Shown piece by piece: positions 27,193 through 55,641 of a stretch of 64,000 bases of DNA. The DNA is from Anaerolineales bacterium (GTDB lineage Bacteria; Chloroflexota; Anaerolineae; Anaerolineales; Villigracilaceae). The position numbers were made by a program, and so were the translations under genes. Location of the stretch: the NCBI GenBank assembly GCA_020851785.1, contig JADZCC010000065.1, positions 6,495 through 70,494 on the forward strand, in the 5' to 3' direction. Below the pieces are notes generated by a model. It ran no database searches. It saw only the letters and a list, made by a program, of their open reading frames with translations, and was not told the DNA's origin. Each line of letters starts with the position of its first letter. Positions within the stretch are counted from its first letter, which is position 1.

Positions 27193-29091
27193 ATGAAAAA
27201 AAATCCGCACGTCTCTCTTTCTGAAGTGCACGAGACCGTCATCGTCCCGGCCAAAATCTCGTCCTGGAAGCGCTGGCTGGCCATCGCCGGGCCGGCCTTG
27301 ATGGTCTCCGTCGGCTATATGGACCCGGGCAACTGGGCAACGGACATCGCTGGCGGAAGTCGCTACAGCTACGCCCTGATCTGGGTCTTGCTCATGTCCA
27401 ATTTGATGGCCATCCTCCTGCAAAGCCTCGCGGCGCGACTGGGCATCGTCAGCCGCCGCGATCTGGCCCAAATCTGTCACGAAGATTATCCGCCGATTGT
27501 CAACATCCCGCTGTACATTCTCGCGGAAATCGCCATCACCGCCTGCGACCTCGCGGAAGTGATCGGCTCGGCCATCGCCTTGCAATTGCTCTTTGGCATT
27601 CCACTGTTCTACGGCGTAATTCTCACCGCGCTGGACACCTTTTTGTTGTTGCTCTTATCTCATGCCGGGATTCGCAAACTGGAAAGCGTGGTTATCTCGC
27701 TGGTTGGGACGATCGGCGTGGCCTTCTTTATTGAAATCATCTTGGGGCAACCAGACTGGGGCGGAATCGTGCGCGGCTTTGTCCCCACCCTACCAGACGC
27801 AAACGCCTTATACATCGCCATCGGCATTTTAGGCGCAACGGTCATGCCGCATAATTTATATTTACATTCTTCGCTCGTGCAAACCAGAAAAATTGGGCGC
27901 GATTCGGAAGAGGTCAAAAAGACCCTGCGTTGGAACACGATTGACACCACCTTCTCGCTGAACATCGCCTTCTTCATCAACGCCGCAATTCTGGTCATGG
28001 CCGCTTCCGTCTTTCATAAAAACGGTTATTTTGAAGTGGCTGAAATTCAAGACGCTTATCACCTGCTGGAGCCGCTGGTCGGCGCCTCCATCGCGCCGAT
28101 TGCGTTTGCCATCGCGCTCCTTGCCTCGGGGCAAAGTTCCACGATCACTGGCACGCTCGCCGGTCAAATTGTGATGGAGGGTTACCTCAACCTGCGGATT
28201 CGCCCCTGGCTCCGCCGCTTAATTACCCGATTATTGGCCGTCGTCCCCGCAGTTTTGGTCATCGCCCATTTTGGAGAAAACGCCACCGGCGCCATGCTGG
28301 TGCTTAGCCAGGTTGTGCTTTCGCTTCAACTCCCCTTTGCGATCATTCCATTAATCAACGCCGTGGCAGATAAACGCCGGATGGGCGAATTCACCATCGG
28401 GCGCAAGATTCAAGCGCTGGCCTGGCTCGTCGCCGGAGTCATCCTGGCGCTGAACATCAAGCTGATTATTGACCAGCTCAACGAGTGGATTGCCGAAGCT
28501 GGAACAAACGCTTGGATGATTCAGCTAACGGTTATTCCACTCATCATTGGGCTTGGACTCTTATTGTTATACGTCATTCTGCATCCCTGGCTTCGCAAGC
28601 AAAACGGATTTCATGTCGGCGGCATTCACCGCGCAACTTCGCAAGCCAACGTCCCGCTTCAGCGCCCGGAGCCCTATCAGCGCATCGCCGTGGCTTTGGA
28701 TTTCTCAGGAAAAGACGAGAAACTCCTCGCTGAAAGTTTACGCTTCATTGATAAAACCGAAACACAACTAACGCTTTTACACGTTGTGGAAAGTCCGGTG
28801 GCCCGCAGGCTTGGCGCCGAAGGCGAAGATTCTGAAACGCTGGCAGACCGCGAGCGCCTGGAGACTATCACGCAACAAATGCTCGAAAATGGCGTGCAGG
28901 CCAACTGGCAGGTTGGGAGCGGCGAACCCGGCAAAGAACTGGCCAAAATGATTAACGACTTAAAGATAGAATTGGTCGTCGTCGGCGGGCATGGTCATTC
29001 CGGCGTTTCCGACCTAATTCATGGAACGGTGATCAGCGATTTACGGCATCACATCAAAGCCAGCGTGATGATCGTGCCAATTGGGGATTAA
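27193..29091 (+). CDS. mntH: NRAMP-family divalent metal (Mn2+/Fe2+) transporter fused to a C-terminal universal stress protein (USP) domain
   Basis: 632 aa. GPALMVSVGYMDPGNWATDIAGGS and ATVMPHNLYLHS NRAMP motifs. The last ~145 aa (RIAVALDFSGKDEKLL...LVVVGGHGHSGVSDLIHGTVISDLRHHIKASVMIVP) are UspA-like. Confidence 0.85.
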   Translation: MKKNPHVSLSEVHETVIVPAKISSWKRWLAIAGPALMVSVGYMDPGNWATDIAGGSRYSYALIWVLLMSNLMAILLQSLAARLGIVSRRDLAQICHEDYPPIVNIPLYILAEIAITACDLAEVIGSAIALQLLFGIPLFYGVILTALDTFLLLLLSHAGIRKLESVVISLVGTIGVAFFIEIILGQPDWGGIVRGFVPTLPDANALYIAIGILGATVMPHNLYLHSSLVQTRKIGRDSEEVKKTLRWNTIDTTFSLNIAFFINAAILVMAASVFHKNGYFEVAEIQDAYHLLEPLVGASIAPIAFAIALLASGQSSTITGTLAGQIVMEGYLNLRIRPWLRRLITRLLAVVPAVLVIAHFGENATGAMLVLSQVVLSLQLPFAIIPLINAVADKRRMGEFTIGRKIQALAWLVAGVILALNIKLIIDQLNEWIAEAGTNAWMIQLTVIPLIIGLGLLLLYVILHPWLRKQNGFHVGGIHRATSQANVPLQRPEPYQRIAVALDFSGKDEKLLAESLRFIDKTETQLTLLHVVESPVARRLGAEGEDSETLADRERLETITQQMLENGVQANWQVGSGEPGKELAKMINDLKIELVVVGGHGHSGVSDLIHGTVISDLRHHIKASVMIVPIGD

Positions 29092-29553: not shown

Positions 29554-31902
29554 ATGGAACAAACCATTGACATTGACATCCCGTTATTGCTCCCTGGCGT
29601 CGAGAACGAAAAAGACGAATGTCTCGCGCGGCTTGAAACGGCGCTTCAAAATAAAAAAGGGATCTTCCGCGCCCACGTGGAACGCGACAAAACGCCGATT
29701 GACCTGTGCCTGCACTACGACCCCAACCTGCTGACTCTATCCGACGTGAAGCGGTTCGCCGAACTGGCGGGCGCGCAGATCGTCAACCGCTATCATCACG
29801 AAGCGATTCCCATCGAAAACATGGATTGCTCCGATTGCAGTCTGGTCATCGAACATAGCGTTGGACGCATGGATGGCGTGTTGTCGGTCAACGTCAACTA
29901 TCCCACCGAAACGATGTGGATCGAATACGACAATCACAAAATCAATCGCGCCGCCGTTGAAAAGCGAGTCCGCTCGCTAGGGTATCAAATTCCGCTCAAT
30001 GAATTTCAGGCGCGCTTGCAAGAGAATCGAGAATTGCTATTCAGCCTGCTTTCGGGCTTGTTCCTGCTCGTCGGCTGGCTCGGCGATTCGTTCTTTGGAT
30101 TTCCCACCTATCTCAGCATCGGACTCTTCGCCACCGCATACCTCCTCGGCGGATGGGATATTTCGCGCCATGCGTGGCACGCGCTCCGCGAACGCCGCTT
30201 GGACACAGACGGACTCATGGTCGTTGCCGCCATCGGCGCGGCACTCCTCGGTGAATTTGCCGAAGGCGCTCTGCTCCTCTTTTTATTCAGCCTCGGTCAC
30301 GCCTTGGAAGAACGCGCGTTAGACCGCGCGCGCCGCGCCGTCCGCGCATTGGCGGACCTTGCGCCAAAAACCGCATTGGTGAAACGCGACGGCAAAGAGC
30401 AGGAACTCCCCGTTGAGTCGTTGCAACTCAACGATGTCGTCATCGTCCGCCCTGGCGTGCGGATTCCCGTTGACGGAATCATCCTCGACGGAGATTCTGG
30501 CATTGACCAATCTTCCGTCACGGGCGAATCGCTTCCCGTTGATAAAACAACGGGCGATCAGGTCTTCGCCAGCACGGTCAACGGCGAAGGCGCGTTGGAA
30601 GTGAAAGTGACTCGTCTCGCAAAAGACTCCACGCTGGCGCGGGTGATGAAAATGGTCGAAGAGGCACAAGCGCAAAAATCGCCGACTCAGCAAACGGTCG
30701 AGAAATTTGAACGGGTCTTCGTCCCAGCCGTTCTCGTTCTCACCGCGCTCGTCATTGTTGTTCCTCCCCTCTTTGGTTTTCCATTCCGTGAATCATTTTT
30801 ACGCGCAATGACTCTTCTGGTCGCCGCGTCGCCATGCGCCCTCGCGCTCGGCGCACCATCTGCAATTCTCGCGGGCGTGGCGCAAGCCGCGCGAAATGGC
30901 GTGTTGGTCAAAGGCGGCGCGCATCTTGAAAACCTCGGTTTGCTCAAAGCCATCGCTTTCGACAAAACTGGAACCGTGACTCACGGTCAGCCCGAGGTGA
31001 CGGATGTGGTGGCGATTCAGCCGTCGGCGTGGAAAGAAGCGGATGTACTTTCCATCGCGGCAGGATTGGAATCGCGCTCCGCGCATCCGTTGGCGCAGGC
31101 GGTCGTCCGCGCGGCTCAGACGCAGGGTCTGCCTGTCTCCGCCGTGGACGATGTCGAGTCGCTGACGGGACGCGGCTTGCGCGCCGCGTCGAACGGCAAA
31201 ACGATTTGGATCGGCAATCAAAAGTTGATGAACGAAGCAGGCGTAACGCTTTCGCCTGAAGCGATTGCGCGCGCCGAGGCTTTGCAAGGACAAGGCAAAA
31301 CGTTGATGTGGATCGCGGTGGACAAAACGCTGGCGGGTTTGATCGCGCTGGCAGACACGTTGCGCCGTGAAGCCGCGCCGACGATGCAGGCGCTCAAAAA
31401 TTCTGGCGTGGCGCACACCATCATGCTCACAGGCGATAACGCGCGTTCCGCATCCGCGATTGCAAACGAGATCGGCTTGACCGAATTTCGCGCCGACCTG
31501 ATGCCCGAAAATAAATTGACGATCATCCGCGAGTTGGTGAAAGAATATGGGCAGGTCGCCATGATCGGCGATGGAGTCAACGATGCGCCCGCTTTGGCAA
31601 ACGCAACTGTTGGAATCGCAATGGGCGGCGCAGGAACGGATGTCGCATTGGAGACTGCCGATGTTGCATTGATGGGCGATGACCTGAGTAAACTGCCCTT
31701 CGCCGTCGGCTTGGGTCGCGCCACACGCGCGATCATCATTCAAAATCTGGTTATCGCGCTCGGCGTGATCGCTTTGTTGATTATCACCTCTGTGACAGGA
31801 ATCATCAGCATCGGAATCGCCGTCGTCTTTCACGAGGGAAGCACACTGGTGGTTGTGGCGAATACGTTGAGGTTGTTGAGGTATAAAAATCCCTCACCCT
31901 AA
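29554..31902 (+). CDS. heavy-metal P1B-type ATPase (SPC / HEGST signature, Co/Zn-type) with N-terminal HMA-like domain
   Basis: 782 aa. TGES, SPC in the TM preceding DKTGT, GDGVNDAPAL, HEGST in the last TM. N-terminal MDCSDCS ferredoxin-like domain. Confidence 0.85.
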   Translation: MEQTIDIDIPLLLPGVENEKDECLARLETALQNKKGIFRAHVERDKTPIDLCLHYDPNLLTLSDVKRFAELAGAQIVNRYHHEAIPIENMDCSDCSLVIEHSVGRMDGVLSVNVNYPTETMWIEYDNHKINRAAVEKRVRSLGYQIPLNEFQARLQENRELLFSLLSGLFLLVGWLGDSFFGFPTYLSIGLFATAYLLGGWDISRHAWHALRERRLDTDGLMVVAAIGAALLGEFAEGALLLFLFSLGHALEERALDRARRAVRALADLAPKTALVKRDGKEQELPVESLQLNDVVIVRPGVRIPVDGIILDGDSGIDQSSVTGESLPVDKTTGDQVFASTVNGEGALEVKVTRLAKDSTLARVMKMVEEAQAQKSPTQQTVEKFERVFVPAVLVLTALVIVVPPLFGFPFRESFLRAMTLLVAASPCALALGAPSAILAGVAQAARNGVLVKGGAHLENLGLLKAIAFDKTGTVTHGQPEVTDVVAIQPSAWKEADVLSIAAGLESRSAHPLAQAVVRAAQTQGLPVSAVDDVESLTGRGLRAASNGKTIWIGNQKLMNEAGVTLSPEAIARAEALQGQGKTLMWIAVDKTLAGLIALADTLRREAAPTMQALKNSGVAHTIMLTGDNARSASAIANEIGLTEFRADLMPENKLTIIRELVKEYGQVAMIGDGVNDAPALANATVGIAMGGAGTDVALETADVALMGDDLSKLPFAVGLGRATRAIIIQNLVIALGVIALLIITSVTGIISIGIAVVFHEGSTLVVVANTLRLLRYKNPSP

Positions 31903-34891: not shown

Positions 34892-35296
34892 ATGAAATCT
34901 CAAAAACTCACCCATGCAGGCTGTGTCGTCTTTCAGGAAAAGGGCAAACGGAAGACTTATCTGATTGTTGAGTCATCCTCCGGCGAGCATTGGATCCTGC
35001 CGAAGGGACATATCGAAAAAGGCGAGACCCCGCGAAAAGCCGCATTGAGAGAATTACGAGAGGAAGCGGGAGTCGTTGGGAAGGTTATCCAAAAAGGCCC
35101 GACACAATCATATCCAATGAAAAATGAAGAAATTACCGTCCAATACTATATTGTGCAATACATAAAGACGACCACAGCGGACGAGGATCGCGCGCTTCAA
35201 TGGGTATCGCAAAAAAAGGCCTTGGAGATTCTATCGTTTGAAGAAGGCAAGCAGGCTCTGCGAGACGCGGCGCAAACGATCAGGCGGACCGGATGA
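34892..35296 (+). CDS. NUDIX hydrolase (Ap4A/diphosphoinositol-polyphosphate hydrolase-like)
   Basis: 134 aa. Nudix box GHIEKGETPRKAALRELREEAGV. Confidence 0.85.
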   Translation: MKSQKLTHAGCVVFQEKGKRKTYLIVESSSGEHWILPKGHIEKGETPRKAALRELREEAGVVGKVIQKGPTQSYPMKNEEITVQYYIVQYIKTTTADEDRALQWVSQKKALEILSFEEGKQALRDAAQTIRRTG

Positions 35297-36150
35297 ATAC
35301 TGCCCAAGTTAGCATTGAACTCATTTTGGCGGGCATTCTCGCCCTGAGCGCCTTCGTCCTGCCGTTTTGGAAGGGTCAAGGGATTGATCCGGCGTTTTTA
35401 CAAAACGAAGCGCTGATCGGATTTCTAGGCCTGGCCTATTTGCTGGGAGTCGTCTTCGACAAGTTGGCAGATACGATGCTCACCCCCGCGGAACACCTGC
35501 TACGCATCAAACAGGGCGCGAAATATCTTGACGAACACCCCAACTTCAAAGGGAGCGATCCCTTTCCGCAAAATGACCTTGAATTTAGTTTGAAAAAAGC
35601 AAAAGATGGGCGCCTGGATTGGATGAACTCACTCAAGAGTCGCATCCGTACCAGCCGCGAGTTGGCGATTTTAGGTCTGCCCGCCGTCATGGGGCTGACG
35701 ACCTACATGGGAGTCACAAAGAACTGCGTAGCAAATCAACCCGCCTGCGCCACAGGGTGGGTCTATCTCCCCGTCGTCTTGAATATGATTTTCTTTATCG
35801 CCGCAATCTATCTCGATTCAAAAACCTCCGACGAAGACTCAACGGACAAAAGCGTCTCGCCAAAACTGAAGACGCATCAACTTTCGCATGACCGCAAAAC
35901 GCGGGAGCGGCAACTTCAGCAAACCAAACGACAAGTTCATAGCGCTTCCATTCCATATTACTTACTGCTCGCCAATTCCATCCTCACCACAGGAACCATC
36001 GCGGCGTTCAATTTCGACAACTCAACCATCGTTTTGGTCGCCGTTGGGGGCGCCATGATTTCCCTGCTGGCGCTCTGGTCGTGCCTGCGAATCACGCGCA
36101 CGTATTTGAAGTTCGTCGCCAGAGAGATGGCTTCCTTGCCAAAAAAATAA
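35293..36150 (+). CDS. hypothetical polytopic membrane protein
   Basis: 285 aa, about 6 TM, with a soluble insert and a highly charged loop. Its ATG overlaps the NUDIX stop (ATGA). Confidence 0.6.
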   Translation: MNTAQVSIELILAGILALSAFVLPFWKGQGIDPAFLQNEALIGFLGLAYLLGVVFDKLADTMLTPAEHLLRIKQGAKYLDEHPNFKGSDPFPQNDLEFSLKKAKDGRLDWMNSLKSRIRTSRELAILGLPAVMGLTTYMGVTKNCVANQPACATGWVYLPVVLNMIFFIAAIYLDSKTSDEDSTDKSVSPKLKTHQLSHDRKTRERQLQQTKRQVHSASIPYYLLLANSILTTGTIAAFNFDNSTIVLVAVGGAMISLLALWSCLRITRTYLKFVAREMASLPKK

Positions 36151-40890: not shown

Positions 40891-40930
40891 GTCAGGTTGA
40901 AGGTTACAGGTTAGAGGTTGAAGGTTGGGT
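40891..40930. repeat. copy of the GGTTGAAGGTT(A/G)CAGGT repeat family
   Basis: GTCAGGTTGAAGGTTACAGGTTAGAGGTTGAAGGTTGGGTT, lying between pth and the upstream gene. Confidence 0.85.
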
Positions 40931-41541
40931 TAGATTTTTTTACGCAGGTATAAAAGCAAGGCGGCGCAAAGGAAGACGATGATGACGGTTAAGGCTCCGC
41001 GCAAAAAGGCGGCGGGGATGGCGGCGCTATTCAGCGAAGCGGGGTTGGCGGGCAGGTCGGTAGGCTGGGCGAAGAAAAGCGTGGCGGTAGGCTGGGGAAG
41101 TTGCGTCGCTTCGGCTTGCGGCGCGGCGGACGCGGCAATTTCAAAGACTTCGGTTGGGGTTTGCGTGGCCAGCGGAACTTCGTTCTGGATTTTCAAACCT
41201 TTGATCACAGCGTCCTGCACGGAACCGTCTTGAAAGTGGACGCGCAAGTGCAAATCATATTCGCCGTCGGTGATGGCGGTGGTGTCCCAAATGGCGAGCG
41301 GCGAATCCGCTTTGGGCTGGGGAAAGGTTTGGATGACGAACCAACTTTGAGCGGAGTCTGAAGCGAAGGAGAACGCCAGTTCGGCTGAAGAGAAGTTGGG
41401 TAAATCCATCGTGCCGTGAATCTCAACCTGCCCGCGCAAAACCTCGCCGGGCTGTGGCGCAGTGAGCGTCGCTGTGGCGTTTTGAAAAAAGAGGGTTAAA
41501 AGCAAAAATGCTTGGAGCATGGCAATCGGTAAGTTTAACAT
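40930..41541 (-). CDS. hypothetical exported protein with a C-terminal membrane anchor
   Basis: 203 aa. N-terminal signal-like segment, a beta-rich middle, and a C-terminal TM (ALTVIIVFLCAALLLYLRKK). Confidence 0.55.
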   Translation of the reverse strand: MLNLPIAMLQAFLLLTLFFQNATATLTAPQPGEVLRGQVEIHGTMDLPNFSSAELAFSFASDSAQSWFVIQTFPQPKADSPLAIWDTTAITDGEYDLHLRVHFQDGSVQDAVIKGLKIQNEVPLATQTPTEVFEIAASAAPQAEATQLPQPTATLFFAQPTDLPANPASLNSAAIPAAFLRGALTVIIVFLCAALLLYLRKKI

Positions 41542-45431: not shown

Positions 45432-45535
45432 GCTTTAATCCAGTCTCACGAATTGCCCCGCCAAAACCATCCCGGATTTGCGCTTCTGGAATATAATCGA
45501 GCCACTATATTCTACCGACTGGAGGATTGTTTAGC

Positions 45536-46636
45536 ATGGCAAGCGTTACGTATCATCACATTCAAAAGAAGTTTGGCGATCTCACGATCATCAAAGACCT
45601 GAACATTGAGGTTCAGGACAAGGAATTCCTTGTATTAGTGGGCCCCTCAGGGTGCGGCAAAACCACCGCCCTGCGCCTGTTGGCCGGGCTGGAAGAAATT
45701 ACCGGCGGCGAAATCACCATTGGCGACCGCGTGGTTAACGACGTGGCCCCCAAAGACCGCGACATTGCCATGGTATTTCAATCCTACGCTTTGTACCCGC
45801 ACCTTTCCGTGTTCGACAACATGGCCTTCGGCTTAAAGCTTCGCAAAACACCGAAGGAAGAAATCAAACGCCGCGTCAACGAAGCCGCTGAAATCCTCGG
45901 CATTGTGGAATTGTTAGATCGCAAACCGCGCCAACTCTCTGGCGGTCAACGTCAACGTGTGGCGGTCGGTCGCGCCATCGTCCGCGAACCGAAGGTCTTC
46001 CTCTTCGACGAACCGCTCTCCAACCTGGACGCCAAACTGCGCGTCCAAATGCGCGCCGAAATCAGCAAACTGCACCAGCGCCTCAAGACCACGTTCATCT
46101 ACGTGACGCACGATCAAACCGAAGCCATGACCATGGCCACGCGCATCGCCGTCATCAACAAAGGCGACCTACAACAACTGGATACCCCGCAAAACCTGTA
46201 CGATCACCCCAACAACTTATTCGTGGCCGGCTTCATCGGCTCCCCCGCCATGAACTTCTTCCCCGCCAAGATTGTCAAAACCGGCGATAAATTCATTGTG
46301 GACACCGGCGACTTCCAGGTTCAAATCCCGGCCAGCCGCGTCGGAGCGTATAAAGACTCCGTCGGCAAGGACGTGGTCCTCGGCCTGCGCCCGGAAAACA
46401 TCCACGACCCGGAATTTGCCCCGCAAAACATCAGCGCCCAAAGCGTGGTGGCCAAAGTGGACGTGACCGAACTGATGGGCAACGAAACCCTGCTCTACCT
46501 CGTCAGCGGAAAAAACTCCTTCGTCGCCCGCGTAGACCCGCGCTCCAAACTGCGCGTGGGCAACTCCCCGCAAATGGTCTTCGACATGGACAATTTCCAC
46601 ATCTTCGACGCGGTGACGGAAAAAGCCATTCGCTAA
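45536..46636 (+). CDS. sugar ABC transporter ATP-binding protein (MalK/UgpC/MsiK type), not adjacent to any permease
   Basis: GPSGCGKTT, LSGGQRQRVAV, FLFDEPLS, C-terminal TOBE. Start at ATG 45536 (MASVTYHH), 10 nt after GGAGG. The track start 45527 is a TTG. Confidence 0.85.
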   Translation: MASVTYHHIQKKFGDLTIIKDLNIEVQDKEFLVLVGPSGCGKTTALRLLAGLEEITGGEITIGDRVVNDVAPKDRDIAMVFQSYALYPHLSVFDNMAFGLKLRKTPKEEIKRRVNEAAEILGIVELLDRKPRQLSGGQRQRVAVGRAIVREPKVFLFDEPLSNLDAKLRVQMRAEISKLHQRLKTTFIYVTHDQTEAMTMATRIAVINKGDLQQLDTPQNLYDHPNNLFVAGFIGSPAMNFFPAKIVKTGDKFIVDTGDFQVQIPASRVGAYKDSVGKDVVLGLRPENIHDPEFAPQNISAQSVVAKVDVTELMGNETLLYLVSGKNSFVARVDPRSKLRVGNSPQMVFDMDNFHIFDAVTEKAIR

Positions 46637-46652
46637 AATCAATTTTACAGAC

Positions 46653-46687
46653 GAGACGCGCGGGTCAAACTCCCGCGCGTCTCTTTT
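46653..46687 (+). terminator. rho-independent terminator
   Basis: GAGACGCGCGGG-tcaaact-CCCGCGCGTCTC followed by TTTT. Confidence 0.85.
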
Positions 46688-46713: not shown

Positions 46714-48198
46714 ATGTCGGCTCCTACATGGGTTAAGGACGCGGTCTTCTATCAAATTTTTCCAGATCGTTTCGCAAAAAGCGCCCTCAACTCCGCCAAA
46801 AATTTATCATTCGAGAGTTGGGATTCAGCGCCAACCACGTATGGCTTCAAAGGCGGCGATTTATACGGCATCGTCGAAAAATTGGGGTATCTGCAAGAAC
46901 TGGGGATTAACGCGCTCTACCTTAACCCGATCTTTGCTTCCGCTTCCAATCATCGTTATCACACCTACGACTATTACAACGTAGACCCGCTCCTCGGCGG
47001 CAACGCGGCGTTGAAGAAATTAATCGCCGCGGCGCATCGGCGCAACATCCGCATTGTGCTGGATGGCGTCTTCAACCATGCCTCGCGCGGATTTTGGCAA
47101 TTTCATCACGTCCTCGAAACCGGCGCCGCCTCGCCTTACCGCGATTGGTTTTATTTCGACGAAGAGCGGCTGAACGGCAAAAGGCATTGGGGAGCCTACC
47201 CCACGCACCACGAAGAACATGCCCTCAGACACGAAGACAGCCTGACGGCCATTGGCTATCGCGCCTGGTGGAATTTACCCGCCCTGCCCAAGTTCAACAC
47301 CCACACGCCCGCCGTGCGCGAATTCATCTTTGACGTGGCGGAACATTGGATTAAATTTGGCGTTGACGGCTGGCGGCTGGATGTGCCTGCCGAAATTGAC
47401 GACGACGAATTTTGGCGCGAGTTTCGTGTCCGGGTTCGCAAGGCCAACCCGGAGGCATACCTGGTCGGCGAGATTTGGCACGAAGCCCAACGCTGGCTAA
47501 AAGGCGATCAATTCGACGCGGTGATGAATTACCCCATCACGGCCGCCGCGCTGGGATTTTTTGCGGCAGAACATTTGAACCTGCCCATCGTCCAGCAGGC
47601 AGGCGGGATTAAAGACCGCATCCGCCCACTCCAGGCTGGCGACTTCGCCAACGAAATAGATCGCCTCCTCAGCCTTTACCCGCCAGAAGCAAACTTCGCC
47701 CAACTCAACCTGCTGGACAGCCACGATATGCCGCGCTTCCTCACTTGCGCCAGCGGAAACAAAGCCGCGCTCAAACTGGCCTGGCTTTTCGTCTTCACCT
47801 TCCCCGGCGCGCCGTGCATTTACTACGGCGACGAAATTGGGCTGGATGGCGGCCACGACCCGGACTGTCGCAAATCCTTCCCCTGGCAAAAGAGCAAATG
47901 GGATCAGGACTTGCTCCAATTTGCAAAGGCCTGCATCCAACTCCGCGCAGAACATGCCGCGCTTCGTTCCGGAAGCTATCAGCGCCTGTGGGCCGAAGGC
48001 TCAATTTTGGCGTATTCCCGTTCGTCTAAAAATAAAAACGTGATCGTCGTTTTCAACGTCTCAGAAGCGGAGCAAACCATCCACCTGCCGTGGACGGGTA
48101 AACCGCGCATTTTATTTGGCAGTCCCAAATTCAGCGGAGACCAAACCGTCATTCCGGCGCGAAGCGGGGTCGTCCTCGAAGCGCGTTTGATAAAGTAA
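46714..48198 (+). CDS. GH13 alpha-amylase-family hydrolase (neopullulanase/cyclomaltodextrinase-like)
   Basis: 494 aa. FYQIFPDRF, DGVFNHAS, GWRLDVPAE, EIWH, LLDSHD conserved regions. Confidence 0.85.
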   Translation: MSAPTWVKDAVFYQIFPDRFAKSALNSAKNLSFESWDSAPTTYGFKGGDLYGIVEKLGYLQELGINALYLNPIFASASNHRYHTYDYYNVDPLLGGNAALKKLIAAAHRRNIRIVLDGVFNHASRGFWQFHHVLETGAASPYRDWFYFDEERLNGKRHWGAYPTHHEEHALRHEDSLTAIGYRAWWNLPALPKFNTHTPAVREFIFDVAEHWIKFGVDGWRLDVPAEIDDDEFWREFRVRVRKANPEAYLVGEIWHEAQRWLKGDQFDAVMNYPITAAALGFFAAEHLNLPIVQQAGGIKDRIRPLQAGDFANEIDRLLSLYPPEANFAQLNLLDSHDMPRFLTCASGNKAALKLAWLFVFTFPGAPCIYYGDEIGLDGGHDPDCRKSFPWQKSKWDQDLLQFAKACIQLRAEHAALRSGSYQRLWAEGSILAYSRSSKNKNVIVVFNVSEAEQTIHLPWTGKPRILFGSPKFSGDQTVIPARSGVVLEARLIK

Positions 48199-48321
48199 AC
48201 TACAGATCGTAGCTCGAATTTTACAGGTTGAAAGTTTTTGGCATTTATGACGCATCGCTTTAGCGGATAATGGGCGCATTCTAAAAAGTTTCTCAGAACA
48301 TCTGACAGAAGCGAGGTAAAC

Positions 48322-51300
48322 ATGCCGCAAGACGATCATCCCAATTCAGTTCCGCTGGACGCATCTTTGTATTTCAAGAACATGAGTCAGCAGGAAATTC
48401 TGAATGCAATCTTAAGCAGGTTAAAAAGCGCCAAGCCGTCCACTCAACTGGAAGGGTTGAGGCTCCTGCACGGAATTAGATACAGCAGTGTCGCCATCCG
48501 TCAGCGGGTGGAAGCGCTGGCCGTGGACAGCGACGACTCACAGGTCCAGAAAGAAGCGCTGGAAACTCTGGGGCTGGAAACGCATCAAGCCGTTCAAAGA
48601 AGCGCCAATCTGGCCAAACTCAATCAAGAGGTTCGGAAAATCCTCCTCGGCGAAATCAGCGCCTGGGTCATGGGCGGGGTGATTAATAGCAAAGTTGCCG
48701 ACGTTTTGCGCCGCCGCTACGATTTTGACCTGGTCGCTCCGGCCAAGCCTCAGCCGGCTCCTCAACCTTCAGCAAAGCCCGCGCCGACGGCAGAGTCCGC
48801 CCCTGCACAACCTCCTCAACCCGTGGAAATTTCCACGCCAACAGAAGACGCGCAGGCCGCGCAAATTCTCCAACCTGAACCTATTCAAACTCCCCAGCCG
48901 GCACAAGTTCAAGTTCCTCAACCTAAGCCTGTGCGTAGCGTTCAACCTGCGAAAATTCCAGCACCTGCGCCCAAACCGCGAGAACCCGAAGGCCCGCGCC
49001 CCACGCTCCTGCAAACGCTCACCAGCGAAGCCAGCATCAAAATTTATTTATATCTCGGCGCATTTTTTGTGATTGCCGCCGCCGCAATTTTAGGCGCGGC
49101 AGTTCCCGGAGCGCGCTTGCCGATTTTAATCATCGGCACGTTAATCTTTGGCGGACTGGCCGTAGCCATCAAGAAACGCCTTCCACAGCCCAGTTTTGCT
49201 TTATTCATCGTTTTTTCGTTTCTACTCCCCATCACCGGCAACAGCCTTGAAGAATCTTTGCGTTCCGCGTTGAATTACTCGGCAGATGGAACCACCTTTA
49301 TCTGGACCATCCTGTTTCTCCTCATGGCGCTGTTCTGGAGCGGCGGGGTTTATCTCTATCAGTCGCGCCTGTTTAGCGTCACCGCGTTTGGCGCATTGCT
49401 CCTTTCCGCCTACAGCCTCGCCAAACTGCTCGCCACCGAACCCGAACTGTACACGCTGACGCTTGCGCTGGCGACGCTCCTCGGTTGGGTTGGCGTCCGC
49501 TTCTTAAGAAAATGGCAGGATGCAAAATTCGCGCTTCCGCTTTTCATTTCAACGCAAGCGGTTCAAGCGATCGTCCTGCTCGCTTCAATTTCAATTTTCA
49601 GCGCAAAACTAGTCAATGGGAGCGCATCCAGCCCCACTTGGCATTTGGTCTCTCTTGGCGTTTGGATTCTAGCAAGCCTCTTCTACGCGCTCTCAGCGCA
49701 GACCGAACCGAAGTTTATTTTTGAATGGCTCTCCACTGCGGCGCTCATTCCCCTGCCCTGGTTCATCATCGCCGCATTTAACCTTCAGGCGCTTGGTTCC
49801 AGTTTGGTCTTTTTCCTGTGGGGAGCGATTTTAACCGTAGCCAGCGAAGGCTTTTGGCGTTTCAAATTTGCGACCAAATTCAGCCTGCCGTTCCTCCTGG
49901 CTGGGCTCTTCACTTTGGCCAGCAGTTCAGTGGCCGCCCTCGGTCACAAGGCTTGGCTGGTGTTGCTAGTGACCGCCGGAAGCGGCGCGATCCTCACCGC
50001 GCTTCACGTCCTGCGCACAAGATGGCCCTTGTGGACTTTGGCCCTGCTCAATTTCATCATCGCCTATTTTGCCTTCTTCAACCTGGAGTTCATTCGCGCC
50101 TTGATTCCGGGAAGTTACCAAGTCTTCCTCGTCAGCCTCTTGCTCCTGCTCCCCGACCTATTCCTCAAGAAGGACTGGCGGGATTTGGCCAGTTGGCGCA
50201 TTCCTATGCGAGCCTACGGAATTCTCCTCGCCGCCTGTGCATATCTTTATACAATTACAGTCGCCGTCGCTGGGGAGTACAACGCCTCACTCGACGCGGC
50301 TGTGATCTTTGCCGTGTACGCAGGCTTTACCGGCGTTTACGCGCTGGCTTATCGCACCGCGTGGCTGGGCTATGTTTCCACCGCCACCCTGCCGCTGGCT
50401 TTCATCTTCATCTTCAACCACTTCAACCTGAACGCCTGGCTCCCAACGCTGACCGTCCTTGCCATTTTCTATTTCCTGCTTGGGTTGGCCATCCACGCCC
50501 GCGCAAACTGGTCGCTCATGCTTCGCAACAGCGCCCTGATTTTAGGCGCGCTCGTTTCGCTGACTGCTCTGGTCCTGCTCAAACCACACAGCGGATGGTA
50601 TGTGCTTGTCATCGGCTTACTCTTCGTCGCGGAAATGTATCTGTACAAAAACAGCCTGTTTGAAATGGGCGCGCCGGTTTTCTTCACGATTGGAGCATTT
50701 CTCGTCCTGCGCGATTTCAACGTCACCCGCATCACCATACATCTGCTGATTTATAGCCTCATCTGGCTGTCCGCCGACCTAATCGCACACCTCGCCTACA
50801 AACATCCCCGCCTGTTGAGCGCAGGAATCCGCTTCATTGGCGGCTCGCTCGCCCTGATTAACTACCTCCTCCTACTCGGAGCGCCAAGCGGCTCTGCCGC
50901 CATCAGCTTTGCGATTTACACAGCTTTTACCGGCGTGTACGCGTTGGCTTATCGCCGCGCATGGCTGGGTTACATCCCCGCCGCCACCCTGCCGCTGGCG
51001 TTCATCTTCACATTCAACCATTTCAAGTTGGATGCCTGGCTCCCAACGCTAACAGTCCTTTCCATCCTCTATTTCCTGCTTGGGTTGGCCATCCAGTTCC
51101 GTGCAAGTTGGTCGTTCATGCTTCGCAATAGCGCCCTGATTTTAGGCGCGCTCATTTCGCTGAATTCTTTGATCTTTCTAAAAGAACACGGCGGATGGTA
51201 TGTTCTCGTAATCGGCTTGCTCTTCGTCGCGGAAATGCTTTTACGCAAGAACGGCCTGTTTGAAGCGGGCGCGCCAACCTTCTTCACAATTGGGGCGTTC

Positions 51301-52962
51301 CTTATCCTGAACGATTTCAAAGTGGCGCAAGCCACTATTCACTTGCTGATTTACAGCCTCATCTGGCTGTCCGCCGACTTGATCGCGCATCTCGCCTTCA
51401 AACATCCCCGCCCATTAAGCGCAATCATCCGCGTCATTGGCGGCTCGCTCACCCTGATCAACTACCTCCTCTTACTGGGCGCTTCAAGCGGTTCTGCCGC
51501 CATCAGCTTTGCGATTTACACAGCGTTTACCGGCGTGTACGCGCTGGCTTACCGCCGTGCATGGCTGGGTTACATCCCCGCCGCCACTTTGCCGCTGGCG
51601 TTCATCTTCACGTTCAACTACTTCAAATTGGATGCCTGGCTCCCGGTTCTGACCATCCTTTCCATCTTCTACCTCTTGCTGGGTCTAGCTATTCGCTCCC
51701 GCACAAACTGGTCGCTCATGCTTCGCAACAGCGCCCTAATTTTAGGCGCGCTCATTTCGCTGAGTTCCCTGGCTTTGCTCAAAGAAACCAGCGGATGGTA
51801 TATCTTCGTCATCAGCTTGCTCTTCGTCGCAGAAATGTTCCTCCGCAAAAACGGCTTGTTTGAAGTAGGCGCCCCGACCCTGTTCAGCATTGGCGCATTC
51901 CTCGTCCTGCGCGATTTCAAAGTCACCCAAATCTCCATGCACTTGCTGGCTTATAGCCTCATCTGGCTGTCCGCCGACTTGCTCGCCCATCTCACCTTCA
52001 AACATCCGCGCCCGTTACGCATCCCCCTGCGCGCCCTGGGCGGTTTGCTGGCTTTGATTAATTACTTCTTCCTGTTTGGAGCTTCGAACGGCTTAGCCAC
52101 ATTTGGCTTTGCGGCCTACACGCTCTTCTTCCTGACCTATAGCCTGCTCTACAAAAACCCGACGCTTTTCTACGCCTTCACATTGACCCTGCCCATCTTC
52201 TCCGCGTTCTTATTCCGCCTGATTGGTTTCAACAAATGGATTCATCCGGTGGCGATCATTGCCCTGGCGCATTACGCCGCTGGCTACCTAGTGCAGAAGC
52301 AAACCCGCCTGGCGCAATGGGGCCTGACGCTGATGCGGAGCGGGCTGGGGCTGGGGGTTTTGGTCTCCTGCGCCGCGCCATTCTTCACAGGGGCAGACGT
52401 GGCCATCCCGGTGGCAATAGCGGCCACGCTGTGGGCCGCCGAGGCTTTCACCAAGAAGAACGTCTATTTGGCCTTTCCCGCCAACGGCTTATATTTATGG
52501 TCGTACTTTATCCTGCTCTATAAGTTAAACGTCACTCAGCCGCAGTTCTTCTCCATTGGAGCCGCCTTGTTGGGGCTGTTCCAACACTATCTGTTGACTC
52601 GCGCCGGTAGCAAAGCCGGAGCGTTCATCATGGGCATGCTCTCGCAATTCATCCTGATCGGCACAAGTTACGTTCAAATGGTCCAGCAAAACCAACTGAT
52701 TTACTTCTTTGCCCTCTTCATCCAATCCATCACAGTTCTGGGCTACGGAATCATCGTCCGCTCGCGAAGCCTGACCTTTTTCCCGATTGGCTTTGTCATC
52801 ATCGCCGTGATTACAGTGGTTCTGGGACAATTACAAGGCATTGCCACCATCCTGCTGGTGGGATGCGCGGGCGTCGTTCTACTCACGCTTGGCGTTGTCG
52901 CTGTTTTGCTTCGTGAGCGCATTGCCGCGCTGGGCGAAAAACTCAGCAGTTGGCAGGCATAA
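48322..52962 (+). CDS. giant polytopic membrane protein of unknown function (soluble N-terminal head, P/Q/A-rich linker, roughly 50 TM helices with 8-TM repeat modules)
   Basis: Uninterrupted 1546-codon ORF with RBS GAGGTAAAC before the ATG. It is hydrophobic from about residue 235 to the end. See findings. Confidence 0.8.
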   Translation: MPQDDHPNSVPLDASLYFKNMSQQEILNAILSRLKSAKPSTQLEGLRLLHGIRYSSVAIRQRVEALAVDSDDSQVQKEALETLGLETHQAVQRSANLAKLNQEVRKILLGEISAWVMGGVINSKVADVLRRRYDFDLVAPAKPQPAPQPSAKPAPTAESAPAQPPQPVEISTPTEDAQAAQILQPEPIQTPQPAQVQVPQPKPVRSVQPAKIPAPAPKPREPEGPRPTLLQTLTSEASIKIYLYLGAFFVIAAAAILGAAVPGARLPILIIGTLIFGGLAVAIKKRLPQPSFALFIVFSFLLPITGNSLEESLRSALNYSADGTTFIWTILFLLMALFWSGGVYLYQSRLFSVTAFGALLLSAYSLAKLLATEPELYTLTLALATLLGWVGVRFLRKWQDAKFALPLFISTQAVQAIVLLASISIFSAKLVNGSASSPTWHLVSLGVWILASLFYALSAQTEPKFIFEWLSTAALIPLPWFIIAAFNLQALGSSLVFFLWGAILTVASEGFWRFKFATKFSLPFLLAGLFTLASSSVAALGHKAWLVLLVTAGSGAILTALHVLRTRWPLWTLALLNFIIAYFAFFNLEFIRALIPGSYQVFLVSLLLLLPDLFLKKDWRDLASWRIPMRAYGILLAACAYLYTITVAVAGEYNASLDAAVIFAVYAGFTGVYALAYRTAWLGYVSTATLPLAFIFIFNHFNLNAWLPTLTVLAIFYFLLGLAIHARANWSLMLRNSALILGALVSLTALVLLKPHSGWYVLVIGLLFVAEMYLYKNSLFEMGAPVFFTIGAFLVLRDFNVTRITIHLLIYSLIWLSADLIAHLAYKHPRLLSAGIRFIGGSLALINYLLLLGAPSGSAAISFAIYTAFTGVYALAYRRAWLGYIPAATLPLAFIFTFNHFKLDAWLPTLTVLSILYFLLGLAIQFRASWSFMLRNSALILGALISLNSLIFLKEHGGWYVLVIGLLFVAEMLLRKNGLFEAGAPTFFTIGAFLILNDFKVAQATIHLLIYSLIWLSADLIAHLAFKHPRPLSAIIRVIGGSLTLINYLLLLGASSGSAAISFAIYTAFTGVYALAYRRAWLGYIPAATLPLAFIFTFNYFKLDAWLPVLTILSIFYLLLGLAIRSRTNWSLMLRNSALILGALISLSSLALLKETSGWYIFVISLLFVAEMFLRKNGLFEVGAPTLFSIGAFLVLRDFKVTQISMHLLAYSLIWLSADLLAHLTFKHPRPLRIPLRALGGLLALINYFFLFGASNGLATFGFAAYTLFFLTYSLLYKNPTLFYAFTLTLPIFSAFLFRLIGFNKWIHPVAIIALAHYAAGYLVQKQTRLAQWGLTLMRSGLGLGVLVSCAAPFFTGADVAIPVAIAATLWAAEAFTKKNVYLAFPANGLYLWSYFILLYKLNVTQPQFFSIGAALLGLFQHYLLTRAGSKAGAFIMGMLSQFILIGTSYVQMVQQNQLIYFFALFIQSITVLGYGIIVRSRSLTFFPIGFVIIAVITVVLGQLQGIATILLVGCAGVVLLTLGVVAVLLRERIAALGEKLSSWQA
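50296..52095 (+). repeat. three in-frame tandem copies of a 600-bp (200-aa) unit inside the giant gene
   Basis: Copy starts are at 50296, 50896 and 51496. For example, GCCGCCATCAGCTTTGCGATTTACACAGC occurs at both 50896 and 51496. A degenerate fourth copy starts at 52096. Confidence 0.95.
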
Positions 52963-52980
52963 TTCATCTCACTCCACATC

Positions 52981-53022
52981 CTTCAACTCGCGGTGGCTAA
53001 AACAAGCCACCGCGAGTTGAAG
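52981..53022 (+). terminator. 18-bp perfect stem-loop after the giant gene
   Basis: CTTCAACTCGCGGTGGCT-aaaaca-AGCCACCGCGAGTTGAAG. A T-run (CTTTTTTC) lies 12 nt downstream. Confidence 0.55.
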
Positions 53023-53131
53023 CGTATTTGAGCTTTTTTCTCTCAGAAGCCTTCGCGGCTAAGGGGTTTTCAGATACTTGATTCGTCACTTTCCCTTAAA
53101 CCAACTTGCCGGTTAATAGTATCATTGCGAA

Positions 53132-54858: not shown

Positions 54859-55641
54859 ATGCCTCCTTCCACCATCGGCGGAATCAACCTACTGCCTGAA
54901 GCCGAAAAAAGGGCCTTATATTCGCGTTACATCCCCAAGCCTTTGATTGAAAAATACAACCTGCCCCCGCTTGATTCGGGGCCAGGGCGCGACCTTCTGC
55001 AATTTCGTTTTGCCAACGGCTCCACCGACGTGGAAATGCGGCTCTATCACCAGATGGATTTTCCAGACCCCATCTTATACGCTCATCTGACCGATACCAT
55101 GAATGGGCAGATTCACGTCCTGCTTTACATTTTGAACGACCCGGATTCGCCGCGCTTTGATGTGGACAAAATGCCCGACGGCTCAACCACCAAGTTTGGG
55201 ACGCTCCAAAGAAATGTGGCGGCGGAGAAAATGTCGCTCGCGGCTGGGCTGGCTCCCGGTCAGGTGCGGCGCGGACTGCGCTTGCTCGGCCCGGCCATCC
55301 AAGCGTTTGAAACCTTCGTCACAGAACTGGGCCACGATCTATATTTCGTCGAACCGTTGTATTATCACAACGCCGTCATCTTTGAGCGCTATGGCTTCGC
55401 CTATCAAATGGGGCGGCGTTTGATGGAGCGCATTCATTTGGGCTTTCAACCCGGCGGCGAACTGCTGACCAAATTGGACGGCTCAAACGAATTTCGGCAG
55501 GCGGAAGCGGCGTTGAAAATTCGCAAACGCTCATGGGCGATTCACGACGGTCTGTTGGGCGAGCCGTTTACCAACGTCACCATGTACAAGCGCATTGGTA
55601 AAGACGCGGGGATTAACACCACGCCCGATTGTGAATGGTGA
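54859..55641 (+). CDS. hypothetical protein (possible GNAT-like C-terminal half)
   Basis: 260 aa, starting 8 nt after the smpB stop. VRRGLRLLGPA...YYHNAVIFERYGFAY is weakly reminiscent of the acetyltransferase motif A/B. Confidence 0.6.
   Translation: MPPSTIGGINLLPEAEKRALYSRYIPKPLIEKYNLPPLDSGPGRDLLQFRFANGSTDVEMRLYHQMDFPDPILYAHLTDTMNGQIHVLLYILNDPDSPRFDVDKMPDGSTTKFGTLQRNVAAEKMSLAAGLAPGQVRRGLRLLGPAIQAFETFVTELGHDLYFVEPLYYHNAVIFERYGFAYQMGRRLMERIHLGFQPGGELLTKLDGSNEFRQAEAALKIRKRSWAIHDGLLGEPFTNVTMYKRIGKDAGINTTPDCEW

Follow-up and report, generated by a model that had tools for sequence, protein, structure and literature searches.

A 64,000-nucleotide stretch of an Anaerolineales genome (GenBank assembly GCA_020851785.1, contig JADZCC010000065.1, positions 6,495 to 70,494 of the forward strand; the whole stretch is hereafter called the window) encodes a giant protein of 1546 amino acids that our sequence comparisons and structure predictions indicate to be a polytopic inner-membrane protein, in which a HEAT-like head is joined by a disordered tether of about 90 residues to 50 up-and-down helices, with both ends predicted to be cytoplasmic. 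Judging from the predicted structures, the membrane part is best described as a helical-repeat (solenoid-like) array of stacked antiparallel hairpins and not as a compact bundle. The most informative feature of the protein, which had no place in a preliminary description made from the sequence alone, is the modular construction of this array and the variation in module copy number among relatives. The family to which the protein belongs is a confident one, well sampled and structurally unusual, and its HEAT-like head, modular array and conserved gene order are all additions to that earlier account. As to function, we tentatively propose a length-adjustable transmembrane scaffold or anchor made of helical repeats, whose tethered head may recruit a cytoplasmic partner, possibly the sugar-transport ATPase MalK or an enzyme of glycoside hydrolase family 13 (GH13), a reading that we consider possible rather than probable.

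Modular architecture of the membrane region

Helices were mapped on the window protein from two AlphaFold2 models, one of the 1072-residue homologue P0112, which has a single module, and one of the second module of the window protein. This mapping gives 50 hydrophobic helices between aa 236 and aa 1529, at about 26 residues per helix and with very short turns, and an independent count of hydropathy peaks also arrives at about 50, in agreement with the preliminary description, which had seen some 1300 residues of near-continuous helices, roughly 50 in number. Lys and Arg residues in the loops are split 33 to 11 between the head side and the other side, a bias that fits a regular up-and-down topology in which the head and the charged C-terminal tail both lie in the cytoplasm. 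The membrane region divides as follows, where HMM stands for hidden Markov model.

48997..50301, + strand: N-terminal membrane block, aa 226-660, 15 helices (helix mapping, invariant columns of P0112, hhalign)
49027-49236, + strand: first three helices, aa 236-305, nearly invariant in the family (invariant columns L173-T235 of P0112)
50302..50901, + strand: module 1, aa 661-860, 8 predicted transmembrane helices (600-nt direct repeat; module HMM, 385 bits)
50902..51501, + strand: module 2, aa 861-1060, 8 predicted transmembrane helices (repeat, module HMM, AlphaFold2 model)
51502..52101, + strand: module 3, aa 1061-1260, 8 predicted transmembrane helices (repeat, module HMM)
52102..52551, + strand: diverged three-quarter module, aa 1261-1410 (module HMM, hhalign)
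52552..52959, + strand: conserved C-terminal membrane block, aa 1411-1529, and charged, putatively cytoplasmic tail, aa 1530-1546 (P0112 columns Q933-W1070; helix mapping)

Helices 16-39 thus make up three modules of 200 residues and 8 helices each. The direct repeats that encode them, spaced at 600 nt, were found by a repeat search and missed by Tandem Repeats Finder, which has a period limit of 500; blastp of the protein against itself returned the identity match alone, and the modules were traced at the protein level with a module HMM and with hhalign on alignment blocks. More distant copies are also picked up on either side of the three modules: aa 1263-1410 align to positions 3-147 of the module HMM (E 2.7e-10; hhalign of blocks B3 and B4, probability 99.5%), and the last ~100 residues before module 1 appear to be a relic of the second half of a module (hhalign of blocks B2 and B3, probability 92.8%). 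By these comparisons, about 34 of the 50 helices descend from one ancestral unit. A short tandem repeat of 22 nt (2.2 copies, 80% matches) at 51527-51573, within module 3, is probably incidental.

Pairs of modules share 70-79% protein identity and 77-82% DNA identity, with a synonymous divergence (dS) of 0.5-0.66 and a nonsynonymous-to-synonymous ratio (dN/dS) of 0.21-0.31, values that point to diverged copies under purifying selection and that argue against a collapsed or duplicated stretch of the assembly. Each module of the window protein is nearest to the other two (78%), any module elsewhere being at most 68% identical, and since their closest relatives are each other the three arose by tandem duplication within their own lineage. 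Separate module duplications are seen in P0002 (76%) and P0006 (92%). Copy number varies widely: among 120 homologues, one full module is present in 70, two in 42 and three in 8, and further relatives have either no full module (~855 aa) or five half-modules of 100 aa. The longest relatives reach 1917-2002 aa, and hydropathy peaks put the helix count across the family at anywhere from ~26 to ~63. Two acidic residues stand out in every module, Asp D159 being invariant and Glu E111 nearly so; both lie inside predicted helices and toward the cytoplasmic ends of these.

The two ends of the membrane region are conserved in a different manner. In addition to the first three helices, the C-terminal ~140 aa are nearly invariant and rich in invariant polar or small residues (Q, S, H, R, G), including Q933, S936, H947, R952, S966, Q967 and R1007 in P0112 numbering, which mostly fall within helices. 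These end blocks are also where confidence in the membrane part of the P0112 model is lowest, with ten-residue means of the predicted local distance difference test (pLDDT) of 62-74 in the N-terminal block and of 77 falling to 54 in the C-terminal block, as would fit surfaces that need a partner.

Predicted fold and comparison with known families

The P0112 model has a mean pLDDT of 83.8 (533 residues at 90 or above) and a predicted template modelling score (pTM) of 0.62, with most of the membrane region above 90, and the model of module 2 (200 aa) has a pLDDT of 91.6 and a pTM of 0.83 and consists of 8 membrane-length helices plus one helix of 4 residues. Foldseek searches of the PDB with the P0112 model returned soluble TPR/HEAT solenoids, weakly (template modelling scores, TM, of 0.07-0.22), and with module 2 the best matches were designed helical-repeat proteins (8f6q, TM 0.54; 5cwn, TM 0.55), none of the PDB matches of module 2 reaching E<=0.001. 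Among the 50 best-ranked matches for each model there was no convincing natural membrane protein, EmrE and YiiP appearing at E >1 and TM 0.23-0.24, and Piezo was absent from the 50 best-ranked PDB matches of either model.

Profile searches were equally unproductive for the membrane part. Pfam gave no family at E<=1 for the whole protein and NCBIfam gave noise alone (E >0.2); searched in pieces, the membrane part had DUF7144 as its sole Pfam match (15.4 bits, cut-off 27), and a family profile run against the sequences in the PDB had its best match (E 0.12) in the head and none in the membrane region. The preliminary description, which had suggested profile searches and structure prediction with Foldseek as checks, had seen no recognisable functional motif in the membrane part and could name no family for the protein. 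For the membrane part this holds throughout Pfam, NCBIfam, PDB sequences and PDB folds, and profile search brought up no whole-protein match to a characterised family in Pfam, NCBIfam or the PDB; for the head it does not hold, as this region matches HEAT-like repeats.

The term transmembrane alpha-solenoid, which is a structural description and not a curated family, fits what is seen, namely three homologous 8-helix modules, two relics and the predicted structures. Soluble alpha-solenoids (HEAT, TPR and designed helical repeats such as DHR71) were the sole Foldseek matches and offer the closest likeness, in that stacked antiparallel hairpins are predicted here too, length is altered by adding repeat units, and the head of the giant protein is itself HEAT-like. 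They differ in that the repeat helices of the giant protein are hydrophobic and predicted to span the membrane, with a positive-inside charge distribution, and in that there is no sequence relationship, the whole-protein TM-scores being as low as given above.

The head and the tether

48322..48732, + strand: putatively cytoplasmic helical head, aa 1-137 (HEAT_2 profile, homologue model, conserved columns)
48733..48996, + strand: Pro/Gln/Ala-rich tether, aa 138-225, predicted to be disordered (low complexity; homologue model)

Within the head, a HEAT-like stretch (aa 28-85) is followed by a conserved terminal hairpin (W115...R132-Y133-x-F135). The window head scores 16.3 bits (E 0.012) against Pfam HEAT_2 (PF13646), below the gathering threshold of 27.7 bits, but 36 of 53 homologous heads match at E<=0.01, the best at E 2.8e-8, and two relatives exceed the threshold (P0020, 28.3 bits; P0224, 28.9 bits). 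A head profile run against the PDB had as its top matches alphaRep proteins (E ~1e-3), artificial repeat proteins that we take to be HEAT-like. In the P0112 model the head is formed of seven consecutive helices (aa 9-117, pLDDT 83-91) that make an array of paired antiparallel helices, as in HEAT domains. Profile matches and model together indicate that the head is a HEAT-like domain, and the HEAT_2 matches across the family and those to alphaRep proteins suggest that it serves as an interaction module.

The head and tether sequences quoted in the preliminary description are present in the translation, and its reading of a low-complexity Pro/Gln/Ala tether is upheld, the equivalent stretch of the P0112 model having a pLDDT below 50 and being predicted as disordered. 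Tether length differs among homologues. Homologues of the P0020 type (e.g. P0003, P0019 and P0020, aa 1-250) begin with ~110-250 additional residues, transmembrane helices among them, and the head, which comes after these, is therefore not N-terminal in such proteins; the additional segment matches DUF4870 in 2 of 53 sequences, and P0020 has a second HEAT-like stretch.

DUF2157 (PF09925) is a family, likewise without an assigned function, in which a short N-terminal helical motif (W...G-hydrophobic...Y) precedes many transmembrane helices, as it does here, and a loose resemblance of the W-x3-G...RY pattern to such proteins had been suggested. The W-x3-G...RRRYDF motif proves to be the last hairpin of the head and is among its most conserved columns. 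The resemblance to DUF2157 is not borne out: no match at E<=10 was obtained with the head or the membrane blocks, nor with constructs of the window protein and P0112 from which the tether had been deleted, and we reject membership, since even removal of the tether yields none. Elsewhere in the family, a divergent relative matches DUF2157 at 18.2 bits (cut-off 32.4) within the membrane stretch and not at the motif, and 1 of 53 heads gives a sub-threshold match.

The gene and its family

48322..52962, + strand: whole open reading frame (ORF), 1546 codons and stop (ORF listing and translation)
48313..48316, + strand: ribosome-binding site GAGG, 5 nt 5' of the ATG (sequence reading)
52981..53039, + strand: intrinsic-terminator-like element, 18-bp stem, 6-nt loop and T-rich tail (sequence reading)

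The gene had been described as one uninterrupted ORF with a good ribosome-binding site and its own 18-bp terminator stem, and as the largest in the window; the ORF listing and our reading of the sequence agree on each point, the next largest ORF having 1134 aa. The arms of the stem, 52981-52998 and 53005-53022, lie 3' of the stop codon and pair perfectly. A further in-frame ATG at codon 21 has no comparable ribosome-binding site, and for this reason the first ATG is preferred as the start. The G+C content of the gene matches that of its surroundings, and T strongly exceeds A, which fits a membrane protein rich in Phe and Leu. The protein shares 100% identity with P0001, which is annotated as hypothetical protein IT310_09770 in a metagenome-assembled genome of Anaerolineales (91-kb contig).

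Homologues of the giant protein form more than 415 clusters at 90% identity, of which the named ones are all 'hypothetical protein' entries of Anaerolineales or Chloroflexi/Chloroflexota. Because these include full-length genes on contigs of 4.1-4.9 Mb, one of them titled as a chromosome, the ORF is a real conserved gene, neither an assembly artefact nor a fusion. A profile search of 1.84 billion representatives returned 378 relatives at E<=0.001, of which the best 150 were inspected, the weakest 228, where links to other families are likeliest, being outside this view. When each species was represented by one genome, scanning brought to light 151 stretches that encode relatives, and 80 loci retained from these are used in the comparisons below; 78 of the 80 carry Chloroflexota names, including Candidatus Villigracilis and Brevefilum, and the other two are labelled 'bacterium' and 'metagenome'. 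In the data searched, the family was seen solely in Chloroflexota records, chiefly Anaerolineales. The literature on DUF2157, transmembrane solenoids, Villigracilis, and Anaerolineae and maltodextrin yielded no publication on it.

Genomic neighbourhood

45527..46636, + strand: MalK/UgpC-type sugar ATP-binding cassette (ABC) ATPase (profile match; conserved upstream cluster)
46653-46683: strong terminator-like hairpin after the MalK-type ATPase
46714..48198, + strand: upstream GH13 gene, neopullulanase/cyclomaltodextrinase-like (Pfam Alpha-amylase, E 2.7e-72)

The order of genes in the window is enolase, MalK-type ABC ATPase, GH13, giant gene, major facilitator superfamily (MFS) transporter and SmpB, within a wider neighbourhood of chromosomal housekeeping genes (Mfd, UvrB, Pth, PyrG). 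The nearest structures to the GH13 product are 2wc7 (1.2e-141), deposited merely as 'alpha amylase, catalytic region', and 2z1k (5.6e-141), a (neo)pullulanase, followed by cyclomaltodextrinases and neopullulanases. The preliminary description had the giant gene standing alone between the GH13 and MFS genes and suggested a check of neighbourhood conservation, which speaks otherwise: of the 61 loci for which at least 2.5 kb of upstream DNA is available, 52 have a GH13 gene upstream of the giant gene, always in the same orientation, no more than 1 kb from where the alignment starts in 45 of these, and GH13 is never found on the downstream side. The spacer that separates the GH13 stop codon from the ATG of the giant gene has a median length of 123 bp, which is also its length in the window (48199-48321). 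Upstream DNA of 9 kb or more is available for 46 loci, of which 31 have MalK, 25 have a sugar-binding protein and 28 have permeases. Distances upstream of GH13 imply three arrangements, with MalK near, with a permease near, or with room for another GH13 gene, and such an extra gene is seen directly in two loci. Through all of these the junction between GH13 and the giant gene is retained, down to 38% protein identity. The nine loci that lack GH13 have no shared upstream partner, their upstream ORFs of ~210 aa being mutually unrelated, bar one putative lipoprotein pair.

The spacer between GH13 and the giant gene aligns poorly across loci, and in the window no sigma-70-like promoter was flagged in it; an Rfam search found nothing there, two matches far below gathering scores lying in the GH13 gene and on the terminator stem. 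Terminator-like hairpins occur in the spacers of loci L005, L006, L013, L018, L020, L022, L029 and L043, for example, and the window spacer is without one. Downstream genes were sought within 5 kb of the giant gene. Two kinds are considered below, a SIR2-like gene and ORFs of ~228 aa with lipoprotein-like N-termini and Pro/Thr-rich stretches, neither of which has a homologue in the window; in locus L006, downstream ORFs lie 479-1234 and 1275-1961 bases past the giant gene, both on the minus strand. Upstream of the divergent relative P0142 in locus L084, at a greater distance, are T2SSE/T2SSF genes of the secretion/pilus-assembly type.

Several other features of the window deserve mention. No genes for a maltodextrin-type sugar-binding protein or permease lie near its MalK-type ATPase, which in this, and in the hairpin that follows it, looks like a sugar ABC ATPase that stands alone and is shared; on the minus strand there are distantly related permease genes, part of other ABC clusters, at about 2.6-5.5 kb and 17-19 kb. 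An Nramp metal transporter to whose C-terminus a universal stress protein (Usp) domain is fused is encoded at 27193-29091 (+) and adjoined by a P-type ATPase with an HMA domain (29554-31902). Three ORFs of 203-285 aa at 54859-55641 (+), 35293-36150 (+) and 40930-41541 (-) have no Pfam match, and the 260-aa one among them, which follows SmpB, has relatives in just 3 related loci.

Interpretation of function

How might a protein of this kind act? In the reading we tentatively favour, the array would be a scaffold or anchor embedded in the membrane, its length depending on how many modules it contains, the conserved blocks at its two ends would be contact surfaces, for other copies of the giant protein or for other membrane proteins, and the tethered head would capture a cytoplasmic partner and keep it at the membrane. 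By conserved gene order, the likeliest partner would be the MalK ATPase or the neopullulanase-like GH13 enzyme of the adjacent maltodextrin cluster. A structural array seems likelier than a machine with a fixed pathway because the middle of the protein repeatedly gains, and tolerates, 8-24 extra helices, and a disordered tether of ~90 residues would suit the capture and retention of a partner and not conformational signalling. An insertion of 8-16 helices in mid-protein would likewise be more readily accommodated by a scaffold than by a fixed route of translocation. There is also a precedent for an additional membrane protein in a maltodextrin ABC importer: MusI, encoded beside the importer MusEFGK2I of Corynebacterium glutamicum, is a membrane protein whose function is unknown but which is reported to be essential for that importer (PMC13008276). 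An accessory role like that of MusI would agree with a gene order conserved in 52 of 61 loci, yet spacer hairpins are frequent, both flanks are conserved and exceptions exist. MusI is, moreover, a small protein of few helices that is not known to have a HEAT head or a repeat array and in this is unlike the giant protein. We consider a functional link of the giant protein to maltodextrin use plausible but not established.

Several observations weigh against a scaffold for maltodextrin enzymes. A GC-rich, terminator-like hairpin with a T tail follows directly on the GH13 stop codon in 27 of 46 spacers, which makes co-transcription of GH13 and the giant gene doubtful in many genomes. In loci with both flanks, a convergent SIR2-like gene is present downstream in 33 of 47, compared with GH13 upstream in 39 of 47, and the ~228-aa lipoprotein-like ORFs are found downstream in 36 of 58 loci, often in two copies; as these downstream genes are conserved about as well, the GH13 adjacency may be inherited synteny and not selected. 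Divergent relatives keep other company: P0142 (858 aa, ~26 helices; L084 8001-10577 and L085 1406-3982) lies just upstream of two or three Flp/Fap pilin genes, and P0224 (2002 aa, ~63 helices; L086 8001-14009) follows a Bac_transf/DegT/GT2 polysaccharide cluster. The geometry of the array (ribbon, arc or ring) is read solely from the kinds of Foldseek match, and the invariant polar residues near the C-terminus of the membrane region might belong to a site for binding or transport.

Several of these points would be accommodated by the same tethered scaffold without a maltodextrin role, that is, a general organiser of the membrane or envelope (a fence, a domain former or an anchor) beside which GH13 is inherited order, an explanation that we think has a real but minor chance of being correct. 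It draws on the syntenic flanks, on the spacer hairpins, on the pilin and polysaccharide genes that adjoin divergent relatives, and on the window itself, which has lost the downstream synteny and lacks sugar-binding protein and permease genes nearby; these Chloroflexota are described as filamentous in published abstracts. Against it stands the persistence of the GH13 junction to such low protein identity and across several upstream arrangements, with GH13 always on the same strand and separated by so short a spacer.

The conservation of the end blocks, the strongest in the protein, could instead point to an undescribed transporter, channel or membrane enzyme, with a site formed by the three N-terminal helices and the polar C-terminal block and with the modules as a peripheral expansion. 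The invariant residues listed above for the C-terminal block, the module residues D159 and E111 placed within predicted helices, and the position of the gene in a sugar-uptake cluster would all suit such a protein. No family of this sort matches by sequence or fold, however, the middle of the protein tolerates the gain or loss of 8-24 helices, and the end blocks that would have to form the site are the least confident parts of the membrane model. We consider this alternative unlikely.

A comparison with Piezo is invited by the very large membrane footprint of repeated helix units. By one account Piezo, with 114 helices per trimer, crosses the membrane more often than any other membrane protein known (PMC9256749). 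It shows that long repeat arrays can act in this way, and the giant array might likewise deform, or report on, the membrane's tension, area or curvature while the head relays its state. Piezo blades resemble the array of the giant protein in having very many helices per chain, laid out as an extended membrane array of repeated helix units. They differ from it in sequence, where there is no match, and in fold, as judged from the 50 best-ranked Foldseek hits; the giant protein is bacterial, has no pore module or cap domain, and with ~50 helices per chain here and ~63 in relatives exceeds the 38 per chain of Piezo, from a unit that is a copy-number-variable 8-helix module. A disordered tether of ~90 residues would moreover be ill suited to relay a conformational change, and profile searches detected no kinase, cyclase or other output domain. 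We hold a Piezo-like sensor to be improbable. Finally, an origin of the ORF in misassembly or in the joining of smaller genes (both raised in the preliminary description), or as a non-functional repeat expansion, is extremely improbable, for although the source is a metagenome-assembled genome and the gene contains 600-nt direct repeats, such an origin is contradicted by the full-length homologues, by the divergence of the repeats and their dN/dS, by three-module relatives in other assemblies and by a frame that is open from end to end.

Implications

If the predicted architecture is right, the giant protein is of a membrane protein type without a characterised counterpart, whose size changes by module duplication; the solenoid principle of soluble scaffolds would then also operate within bilayers, and the family would offer a natural template for the design of large membrane scaffolds. 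A bolder and speculative extension, which we hold to be unlikely as it stands, is a new structural class, the membrane-embedded alpha-solenoid, with more helices per chain (~50 and ~63) than the 38 of Piezo and a length tuned by duplication of 4 or 8 helices, in which the conserved ends would close arcs or rings or chain fences and so corral lipids or partners such as a sugar ABC importer. Were this true, such a corralling array would represent a new way in which bacteria organise their membranes.

Being compact, well sampled and modelled with high confidence, the family is open to direct experimental testing. Filamentous Chloroflexota have been described as abundant in activated sludge. Candidatus Villigracilis is among the Anaerolineales that have the family, which may thus be relevant to the organisation of membranes, or to the uptake of alpha-glucans, in these bacteria.

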